From Actinomycetota bacterium (GTDB lineage: Bacteria > Actinomycetota > Thermoleophilia > Gaiellales > F1-60-MAGs149), in assembly GCA_026392355.1 (NCBI GenBank), contig JAPLCF010000041.1:76716-140715 (forward strand): a stretch of 64,000 nt of DNA, given 5' to 3'. The notes beneath the pieces are model-generated. The model was not told the DNA's origin and ran no database searches. It saw nothing but the letters and a program-made list of their open reading frames with translations. Numbering within the stretch: the stretch's first letter is position 1; each line of letters begins with the position of its first letter. Made by a program: the position numbers and the translations under genes. Shown in pieces: positions 21,232 through 23,320 of this stretch.

Positions 21232-23320
21232 ATGAGCACTGTCATCGACACCCAGACCGAGTCCGCCGCTCCGCGCGCCGATCAGTTGGACCTATACCGA
21301 AACATCGGCATCATGGCCCACATCGACGCGGGCAAGACGACCGTCACGGAGCGCATCCTCTTTTACACCGGCCGAACCCACAAGCTGGGCGAGGTGCATG
21401 AGGGTGGCGCGACGATGGACTGGATGGTCCAGGAGCAAGAGCGCGGTATCACGATTACGTCGGCTGCCACGCATCAACATCATCGATACACCCGGGCACG
21501 TGGACTTCACCGTTGAGGTCGAGCGCTCCCTGCGCGTGCTTGACGGTGCAGTTGCGGTGTTCGACTCGGTCGCCGGCGTCCAGCCGCAGTCCGAGACGGT
21601 GTGGCGCCAGGCCGACAAGTACTCCGTGCCGCGCATCGCGTTCGTCAACAAGATGGACCGCGTTGGCGCCGACTTCGACTACGTGCGCTCGACAATCGTC
21701 GACCGCCTTGGCGCCAATCCGGTGCCGATCCAGATCCCGATTGGTGCCGAGGATAACTTCCAGGGCGTCGTCGATCTCGTTCGCATGAAGGCCATTACGT
21801 TCGATCAGGACGAGAAGGGCCTTGCGTGGACCGAGTCCGATCCCGAGGGCGACCTGCTGGCCGAGGCCGAACTGGCCCGCCACACGCTGATCGAGGCCGT
21901 CGCGGACCACAACGAGGACATCATGATGGCGTTCCTCGAGGACCAGCCTGTCGATAACGCAGACCTCGTCGCCGCGATCCGCGCCGCCACGCTCGACCTT
22001 ACGGTCACGCCGCTGCTCTGCGGCACAGCCTTCAAGAACAAGGGTGTCCAGCAGATGCTTGACGCCGTGATCGCGTACCTGCCGAGCCCGCTCGACGTCC
22101 CGCCGGTCGAGGGCACGATCCCGCGCTCGGGCGACGCCGCCACGCGCGAGGCCACGCTGACCGCACCGTTCTCCGCCCTCGCCTTCAAGGTGATGAGCGA
22201 TCCGTTCGTCGGCAAGCTCACGTACTTCCGCGTCTACTCCGGCCAGCTCAGCGCCGGCTCGGCCGTCTACAACGCGTCGACGGACAAGAAGGAGCGCGTC
22301 GGCCGCATCCTCCAGATGCACGCCAACCATCGTGAGGAGCGCGAGGAAATCGGCGCCGGCGAGATCGCTGCCGGTGTCGGCCTCAAGGCCACCACGACGG
22401 GCGACACGCTCTGCGACGAGAAGCAGCCGATCCTGCTCGAGTCGATCATCTTCCCCGAGCCGGTCATCGAGGTGGCCGTCGAGCCGAAGACGAAGGCCGA
22501 CCAGGACAAGCTCGCCAACGCGCTCCAGCGCCTCTCCGAAGAGGACCCGACCTTCCGCGTCAAGACCGACGAGGAAACGGGCCAGACGCTGATCGCCGGC
22601 ATGGGCGAGCTGCACCTCGAGATCATCGTTGATCGCCTGATGCGCGAGTTCTCCGTCGATGCCAACGTCGGCAAGCCGCAGGTGGCCTACCGCGGGACGA
22701 TCCGCAAGGCCGTCGAGAAGGTTCAAGGCAAGTTCGTCCGCCAGTCCGGTGGTCGTGGCCAGTACGGCGACGTCTGGCTGCGCGTCGAGCCGACCGAGCC
22801 GGGCGAAGGCTTCTCGTTCGAGAGCAAGATCGTCGGCGGCGTCGTGCCGAAGGAGTACCACAAGGCTGTCGGCGAAGGAGCCCGGGAGGCACTCGATTCG
22901 GGTGTCATCGCCGGCTTCCCCGTCGTCGACGTCAAGGTCGCCCTGATCGACGGCAGCTACCACGATGTCGACTCGTCTGAGATGGCGTTCAAGATCGCCG
23001 GTTCGATGGCCCTCAAGGAGGGTCTGCGCCGCGGTGATTCTGCGCTGCTCGAGCCGATCTTCGCCGTCGAGGTCGTCACGCCCGAGGAGTACATGGGCGA
23101 CGTCATCGGCGACCTCAACAGCCGCCGTGGCCGCGTCGAGGGCATGGAGCCCCGCGGCAACGCCCAGGTTGTTACCGCTCGCGTCCCGCTAGCCGAGATG
23201 TTCGGCTACGCGACCGACGTCCGCTCCCTATCGCAGGGTCGCGCGACGTACACCATGCAGTTCCTGCGCTACGAGGAAGTGCCCAAGAGTATCGCCGAGA
23301 CCATTACGGCGAAGGCCTAA
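21232..23320 (+). pseudogene. fusA: Elongation factor G, reading frame interrupted near codon 80
   Basis: Two overlapping ORFs. The first (21232-21516) carries G1 AHIDAGKTT and G2 [10 protein letters not shown]. The second (functional part from about 21470 to 23320) starts at [13 protein letters not shown] and carries the rest of EF-G. The two frames are offset, and about 7 residues of the usual TCFWxxH strand are missing. Confidence 0.85.

Follow-up and report, generated by a model that had tools for sequence, protein, structure and literature searches.

The question raised by this locus is whether a bacterium has truly lost the elongation factor G (EF-G) encoded in its str operon, or whether the loss exists only in the assembled sequence. 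The window, by which we mean the whole 64,000-nucleotide stretch of DNA analysed here, has a G+C content of 65–70%, and its nearest public proteins are those of uncultured Gaiellales (Actinomycetota) from soil metagenomes. The genes are arranged in the order rpoB (9729–13364), rpoC (13412–18358), an open reading frame (ORF) of 312 aa, rpsL, rpsG, fusA and tuf, followed by the S10 and spc ribosomal-protein operons. All of the str-operon features described below are located on the forward (+) strand. The first gene, rpsL (20388–20756), encodes ribosomal protein S12 as 122 aa in one frame, with 100% identity to the S12 of L082, a related Gaiellales contig. The second, rpsG (20756–21226), encodes an S7 protein of 156 aa (Ribosomal_S7 of Pfam in the relatives); an identical S7 is encoded by L001, a contig of 1,679 nt that comes from an independent soil metagenome. 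The last gene, tuf (23396–24580), encodes an EF-Tu of 394 aa with 100% identity to the EF-Tu of L082, and exactly this product is recorded in 50 collection blocks. These three genes are unbroken, and the initial annotation was right to describe the str operon as otherwise intact.

The frame break and the size of the gap

The fusA gene is distributed over frame 1 and frame 2, with ORFs and stops as the initial annotation had described them. Its 5' part (21232–21468, codons 1–79) lies in frame 1 and includes the G1 motif AHIDAGKT and the G2 motif RGITI; it matches residues 1–80 of the homologous protein P0001 with 98.75% identity (tblastn) and covers positions 3–65 of the Pfam GTP_EFTU profile. 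The frame-1 ORF as a whole extends from 21232 to 21516: it makes sense as fusA up to ...ITITSAA at 21468, and its out-of-frame tail, in the +1 reading (21472–21516), continues as nonsense to a TGA at 21514–21516. The 3' part (21470–23320) lies in frame 2 and comprises 616 aa and a stop at 23318–23320. It carries the G3 motif DTPGH, the G4 motif NKMD and domains II–V, shows 97% identity to P0001 over 616 aa, and matches the Pfam profiles GTP_EFTU (positions 70–188), GTP_EFTU_D2, EFG_III, EFG_IV and EFG_C. The GTP_EFTU domain is split between the two pieces at profile positions 65/70. One base, a21469, stands between GCC (Ala79) and CGC (Arg), and this is the single extra nucleotide that had been noticed at the junction.

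Among the paralogous forms of EF-G (EFG I, EFG II, and spdEFG1 and 2; Margus et al. 2011, PMC3150367), the gene in the window is a typical EFG I. The str-operon location rpsL-rpsG-fusA-tuf, a criterion taken from the same study, is present, and so are the five domains (GTP_EFTU, GTP_EFTU_D2/EF-G_D2, EFG_III, EFG_IV and EFG_C) and the G motifs, including the canonical RGITI form of G2, spread over two frames. Absent are a single frame of about 700 codons (frame 1 stops at 21516, and frame 2 holds residues 88–703) and a β2–β3 spacer that takes up 17 or more residues from GITI to DTPGH.

A gapped DNA alignment of the window (20399–22054) to L001 contains 29 mismatches and one gap, which is exactly 23 nt long; the loss of 3n+2 nt that had been proposed from the window itself is thus confirmed and amounts to seven codons and 2 nt. 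At the junction L001 reads GCCA, then the 23 nt CGACGGCGCTGTGGAGTGGTCAT (the form also present in L082), and then CGCATC. In the window these 23 nt are absent between a21469 and c21470 (21469–21470), as a single gap against each of L001, L082–L086 and L096. L082–L086 and L096 (84–96% DNA identity, up to 21 kb) carry the same 23 nt with synonymous variation, and all 7 of the 7 related Gaiellales contigs (84–97% DNA identity) have them, encoding (T)TALWSGH. These are residues of the β2–β3 hairpin, as the initial annotation had suspected in reporting a lost β-strand between G2 and G3. L082–L086, L096 and close homologues read SAATTALWSGHRINIID across the spacer. From GITI to DTPGH the relatives have 17 residues and the window about 10, in agreement with the earlier estimate, and the close homologues are almost all 703 aa long versus 79 + 616 = 695 aa in the window.

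The gap is not a miscalled homopolymer, a point on which we concur with the initial annotation. The only microhomology at the junction is a 2-nt 'CG', which lets the placement of the gap slide by 2 nt, and no direct repeat flanking the junction was found. Three local causes were considered and rejected. Repeat-mediated slippage at the sole repeat (GCATCACGATCA / GCATCAACATCA, spacing 48) predicts an in-frame loss of 48 nt rather than 23 nt; the folding of intact-spacer DNA (both strands of three haplotypes), considered for a polymerase skipping a hairpin, gave z-scores of only −0.7 to +1.3; and the micro-region is not unusually polymorphic, its 7 variable sites in 48 nt placing it in only the top 22% of such stretches. 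When the two truncated products (94 aa and 640 aa) were looked up as exact sequences in public records, neither was recorded.

The spacer is short also by a much wider comparison. When 85 intact EF-G loci from a very wide range of bacteria were measured between the GITI codons and the GH codons, 75 had exactly 26 codons, 10 had more and none (0/85) had fewer, whereas the window has 18 codons plus 1 nt. Because no intact locus falls below 26 codons, the short spacer is not a natural variant. Orthologues of close relatives that read through an equally short spacer in one frame would have refuted the initial annotation; such a spacer was found in 0 of 7 close relatives and 0 of the 85 intact loci.

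The break might be bypassed in translation, in that a +1 ribosomal frameshift at GCC-A-CGC would give an EF-G with a shortened β2–β3 hairpin and leave fusA functional. Frames 1 and 2 do overlap without stops around the junction, from 21398 to 21516, and in E. coli a +1 frameshift in rpoB, an essential gene, has been shown to be viable, with suppression at about 5% (Huseby et al. 2020, PMC7022156). The two cases are alike in that a frameshift affects an essential core expression gene in the same rpoBC-str neighbourhood. In E. coli, however, a single additional base is skipped at a defined heptanucleotide to yield a near-normal protein, whereas the fusA of the window is without eight hairpin codons, a loss beyond repair by frameshifting. 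Moreover, GCC ACG CAT contains no slippery motif; a shift anywhere but exactly at the junction ruins the G3 motif DTPGH; at least 26 codons are present in 85 of the 85 translational GTPase loci examined; and the frame change is conserved in none of the orthologues, the 7 close relatives and the 85 loci all being single-frame. Recoding is effectively refuted, because eight codons are missing whatever the shift, and we consider a functional fusA of this kind hardly credible.

Quality of the contig and selection on fusA

About 57 genes called in relatives (L089, L082 and L093) were translated and searched against the window; this gene-by-gene test replaced a GC3 phase-track heuristic for frame switches, which was too noisy. 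Fifty-four neighbouring genes, beginning with FtsH at 510 and ending with a response regulator at 46512 (0.5–46.5 kb), were matched in a single frame without breaks, and the sole exception was fusA. Counterparts of three small hypothetical genes (hyp239, hyp97 and hyp166) were not found in the window, and the window contains no Ns. A globally poor assembly is rejected on the basis of the 54 other intact genes and the lack of Ns. The lesion is isolated, and any error is local.

Selection on fusA was followed by counting changes on branches, with L096 as the sister and L082/L085 as outgroups. The window branch has 10 nonsynonymous and 39 synonymous codon changes versus 8 and 38–42, respectively, in the sister, and no further stops or frameshifts were found in the rest of the window fusA. 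As there is no sign of relaxed constraint on the gene, the lesion must be very recent if it is real at all. A private missense change was found at codon 496 (22694–22696), in the VAYRETI motif of domain IV, which is GGG (Gly) in the window versus GAG (Glu) in all homologues. Residue 496 is Glu in 108 of 108 full-length homologues and in 80 of 80 diverse loci, and E496G is the only protein position at which the residue of the window is unseen among homologues. No private deviations of the window were found in about 430 invariant columns of RpoC, S12, S7, EF-Tu, S10, L3, L4, L2, S19 and S3. Being a single event, E496G is statistically not decisive, and it is counted below toward a real deletion.

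A tblastn search for a second EF-G within the 64-kb window found none, giving only the two pieces of fusA and a weak match to EF-Tu. An ORF of 669 aa at 48309–50318, considered as a candidate, is LigA, an NAD-dependent DNA ligase.

Recurrence of the junction and the conserved blocks of fusA

A pattern of the junction with degenerate third codon positions, which is unmatched by any intact EF-G and has one match in the window versus none expected in shuffles, was scanned over 241 million metagenome contigs. It gave one match, L088 (WNFJ01528806.1, from GenBank WNFJ01). The fusA of this contig has only about 73% DNA identity to that of the window, its S12 and S7 differ, and its junction shows the same architecture, GCC ACG G ATC AAC. 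A second gap in L088, of 11 nt, deletes the DPFV codons.

In addition, a profile made from the two truncated products was searched against 5.8 billion proteins. The best 120 of 8000 matches are all short N-terminal fragments of EF-G (84–182 aa), many of them on contigs of 100–460 kb, and no fragment of the same lineage as the window is among these best 120 of 8000; a representative library gave 11,312 matches. About half of the fragments leave the frame between SAAT and INIID, a location that is partly forced by the query although the kinds of lesion are not, and the census of lesions is biased by the query toward the G2–G3 site. Of those fragments that have a recognisable +1 tail, 38 out of 53 have the usual number of residues, a sign of tiny indels, and a small second group is without almost the whole spacer. 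Near-identical losses of the whole spacer occur in L097, P0141, P0147 and P0158; in L097, a SPAdes contig (ERZ1756581 NODE_155949) with a k-mer coverage of 3.9x, the loss is 20 nt and has the same right-hand boundary as that of the window. L098 (JGI 3300072659 Ga0613707_030607) has the exact junction of the window, GCC A followed by CGT CTG AAC, with an otherwise open remainder of 637 aa and 8 deviations at invariant columns. Three or more unrelated lineages, drawn from three data sources (the window, WNFJ01 and JGI 3300072659), therefore have the same codon-level deletion. EF-G matches of 634–642 aa were considered as further carriers of the lesion and rejected, being N-terminally truncated calls with a normal spacer, and a tail-only, X-padded profile produced 1 candidate and no scoring match, a weak negative of doubtful sensitivity.

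The deleted stretch is a lineage-variable spacer that lies between two highly conserved nucleotide blocks. Where the deletion ends on its right, a block begins (fusA nt 262–302; 21470–21510 in the window) that is identical over at least 41 nt in the window, L082, L083, L084 and L096; on that side of the junction the first mismatches are at gene nt 303–312 in all comparisons. L084, a mosaic scaffold from the same soil datasets, has 27 differences from L082 in fusA, the last of which is at nt 255, inside the spacer (nt 239–261), and after this switch (nt 255/256) the two contigs are 100% identical over about 2.4 kb. The identity of L084 to L082 is 81–93% in the genes for S12, S7 and the S10 operon versus 99.8–100% from within fusA to the end of tuf. 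Whether L084 is a chimeric assembly or a product of recombination, paths of different species merge exactly at the end of the deletion of the window. L086, considered as a second broken fusA, has instead a 100-N scaffold gap inside the gene. In these communities, fusA, and its spacer boundary with it, is demonstrably prone to trouble in assembly. A chimeric switch within the window was considered and rejected, as L001 is the closest relative to the left of the junction and also to the right. L087, a Logan contig from run SRR20698643, is 100% identical over 1,494 nt to positions 19002–20495 of the window, and SRR20698643 therefore contains the strain of the window; no publication on this run was found. 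Near the junction, this strain is marked by the SNPs T21447, T21456, G21459 and T21465.

A technical artefact or a null allele

It is likely that the 23-nt gap is a local artefact of assembly or consensus. The error probably arose in assembly, scaffolding, consensus or post-assembly editing, and the organism probably has an intact EF-G of 703 aa. An artefact is favoured because all of the relatives have the 23 nt and the truncated products are unrecorded, because fusA appears to have been fully constrained until essentially the present, because the lesion coincides with the boundary of a shared block, where joins occur, and because truncated N-terminal calls of EF-G are abundant in public assemblies. 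It is favoured also because the EF-G of the str operon (EFG I) is reported to be indispensable and not replaceable by EFG II paralogues, so that a fixed null allele is unexpected a priori (PMC3150367).

The manner in which such an error could arise is suggested by the conserved blocks. Blocks common to co-occurring Gaiellales species would act like repeats in the metagenome assembly graph, and strain-specific paths would end on entering a shared block. Contigs might then be broken, joined across species, or imperfectly re-joined at the edge of the block, and in the contig of the window the final 23 nt of the strain-specific path may have dropped out at such a joining of pieces. There is a likeness to chimeric joins between strains or species at conserved genes in metagenome assemblies: L084 switches species at fusA nt 255/256, which is the boundary of the deletion in the window, and L086 has its gap in fusA. 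Unlike these, the window shows no switch of nearest relative across the junction, and bases are lost instead. The recurrence of the lesion in unrelated assemblies favours a technical hotspot, since lethal alleles should not repeatedly reach assembly depth.

Among the apparent pseudogenes of assemblies, many are artefacts whose occurrence varies with the assembler, platform and coverage (Cooley & Wright 2024, PMC11017572). The fusA of the window is like these spurious pseudogenes in that one non-3n indel splits a highly conserved and normally essential gene, which is unbroken in close relatives and shows full purifying selection outside the indel. It differs from them in that the contig is clean and not globally pseudogene-rich, the loss is 23 nt and not an indel of 1–2 nt, and unrelated lineages have the same junction, at a point where a block common to co-occurring species begins. 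Four points stand against an artefact: the contig is clean elsewhere and not generally error-prone; assemblers of the de Bruijn type normally cannot create a junction that is absent from the reads, and this junction has only a 2-nt microhomology and no repeat or hairpin; there is no haplotype switch at the junction of the window; and the private E496G is what a decaying gene might show.

A different technical cause would be an alteration after assembly, such as excision by a contamination or adaptor screen, the dropping of poorly supported bases in polishing or consensus, or manual editing. A clean excision without microhomology in a clean, N-free contig fits the removal of a span, and what is lost is precisely the variable part enclosed by conserved blocks, in which cross-mapped reads from other species would disagree most. 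However, the same junction comes from three sources and pipelines (the window, GenBank WNFJ01 and JGI 3300072659), and the 11-nt loss of L088 is too short for a screening match. The 23 nt are not known to resemble any adaptor, and we consider an alteration of this sort very improbable.

The main alternative to a technical artefact, which we regard as unlikely, is that the deletion is real and represents a null allele that arose very recently in the str-operon fusA of the sequenced population, tolerated through another gene of the EFG I type outside the 64-kb window or through several copies of the chromosome, or picked as a minority haplotype. The assembly is otherwise clean, and a random error that lands in fusA would itself be improbable; a graph assembler working from short reads can give the junction only if there are reads that contain it. 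The change E496G, at a residue invariant in 188 sequences and with none like it in the neighbouring genes, fits a short period of relaxed constraint, and the other copies that bear the lesion are also anomalous (the 11-nt deletion at DPFV in L088 and the 8 deviations at invariant columns in L098). Copies of EFG I beyond the str operon are known in some bacteria, although the str-operon copy is normally the one retained (PMC3150367). In principle a broken copy might be compensated by a paralogue, but EFG II is reported to be unable to replace EFG I, and tblastn found no paralogue in the window. A real deletion is opposed also by the lack of a nonsynonymous excess on the window branch and by the absence of the lesion from every relative (L001, L082–L086 and L096), and the truncated products are nowhere recorded. 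Finally, an identical lesion in unrelated lineages would need the repeated fixation of lethal alleles. The deletion of the whole G2–G3 spacer could be a real and recurrent mutational hotspot, with the str-operon fusA inactivated in several soil lineages and another EF-G gene at work. This would explain both the same junction in three unrelated lineages and the extra anomalies (E496G and the second deletion of L088), and we consider it quite improbable.

The claim of a split fusA thus holds at the level of the sequence, whereas the biology that it implied, an essential gene truly broken, probably does not; the broken fusA is probably not a real biological feature. If the gap is an artefact, the biology is ordinary, that of a normal str operon in an uncultured Gaiellales bacterium, and the lesson is one for annotation and quality control. 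A universal marker gene may carry a single frame-breaking gap inside an otherwise clean contig, and unrelated assemblies can show such a gap again at the very same codon, since the conserved blocks shared by co-occurring species are weak points for assemblers. Genome-quality tools and phylogenomic pipelines in which EF-G serves as a marker would silently lose or truncate it. The repeated finding of one junction at a block boundary common to several species is, methodologically, a modest curiosity. If, on the other hand, the deletion is real, it would be a rare natural knockout of canonical EF-G, implying an unrecognised functional back-up in this lineage, and would be of interest to specialists in translation.

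Elongation factor G genes in the window and elsewhere

Codon 496 of the window fusA (22694–22696) is GGG and places a Gly within the VAYRETI motif of domain IV. Glu occupies this position in all 108 of the close homologues and all 80 of the diverse EF-G proteins compared, and Gly496 is the sole residue of the window EF-G without precedent in the compared homologues.

The same 23-nt gap that splits the window fusA was found in a fusA on an unrelated metagenome contig, WNFJ01528806.1 (L088:1190–2726). This gene has a second gap of 11 nt, with loss of the conserved DPFV codons, and the two gaps together spread it over three frames, while the S12 and S7 genes upstream are intact. 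Public assemblies abound in truncated N-terminal gene calls of EF-G, and these occur also on contigs 100–460 kb long (protein records P0121–P0384). Among the matches listed, most of these calls carry 1–2-nt indels immediately 5' of the INIIDTPGH codons, often adjoining C or G runs (for example, NGPPDQHHRH), and this pattern looks like long-read consensus error.

Among related Gaiellales metagenome contigs, scaffold L084 is a mosaic (L084:2950–6322 compared with L082:7813–11185). Its identity to L082 is 99.8–100% from nucleotide 256 of fusA to the end of tuf, whereas it is 81–93% in the str and S10-operon genes flanking this stretch. Either L084 is a chimeric cross-species assembly, or fusA–tuf was recently transferred between co-occurring Gaiellales.

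rpoC and the adjacent reading frame

The product of rpoC (13412–18358) has 1,648 aa, which is long for a bacterial beta-prime subunit, and the length is the same in the relatives L082 and L089. Two distinct parts of this protein match Pfam domain 1, a pattern suggestive of a large insertion specific to the lineage. Between rpoC and rpsL lies a 312-aa ORF (19224–20162) with a hydrophobic N-terminus, repetitive GAVG/SIGA-like motifs and no Pfam match. It is kept in relatives but evolves fast (89% amino acid identity in L082; 67–83% DNA identity), and it is 100% identical in the Logan contig L087 (run SRR20698643).

Gene content and ribosomal protein extensions

In three relatives (L089–L091), ftsH and an amino-acid permease gene are separated by a hypothetical gene of 239 aa (L089:6513–7232), of which no counterpart was found in the window (site 2471–2479) or in the related contig L092. 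Long low-complexity extensions were recognized in L22 (256 aa; 27573–28343), S3 (374 aa; 28346–29470) and the ORF at the S17 position (237 aa; 30091–30804). In-frame indels make these extensions differ between relatives, and nearly all indels that separate the window from L082 lie in them.
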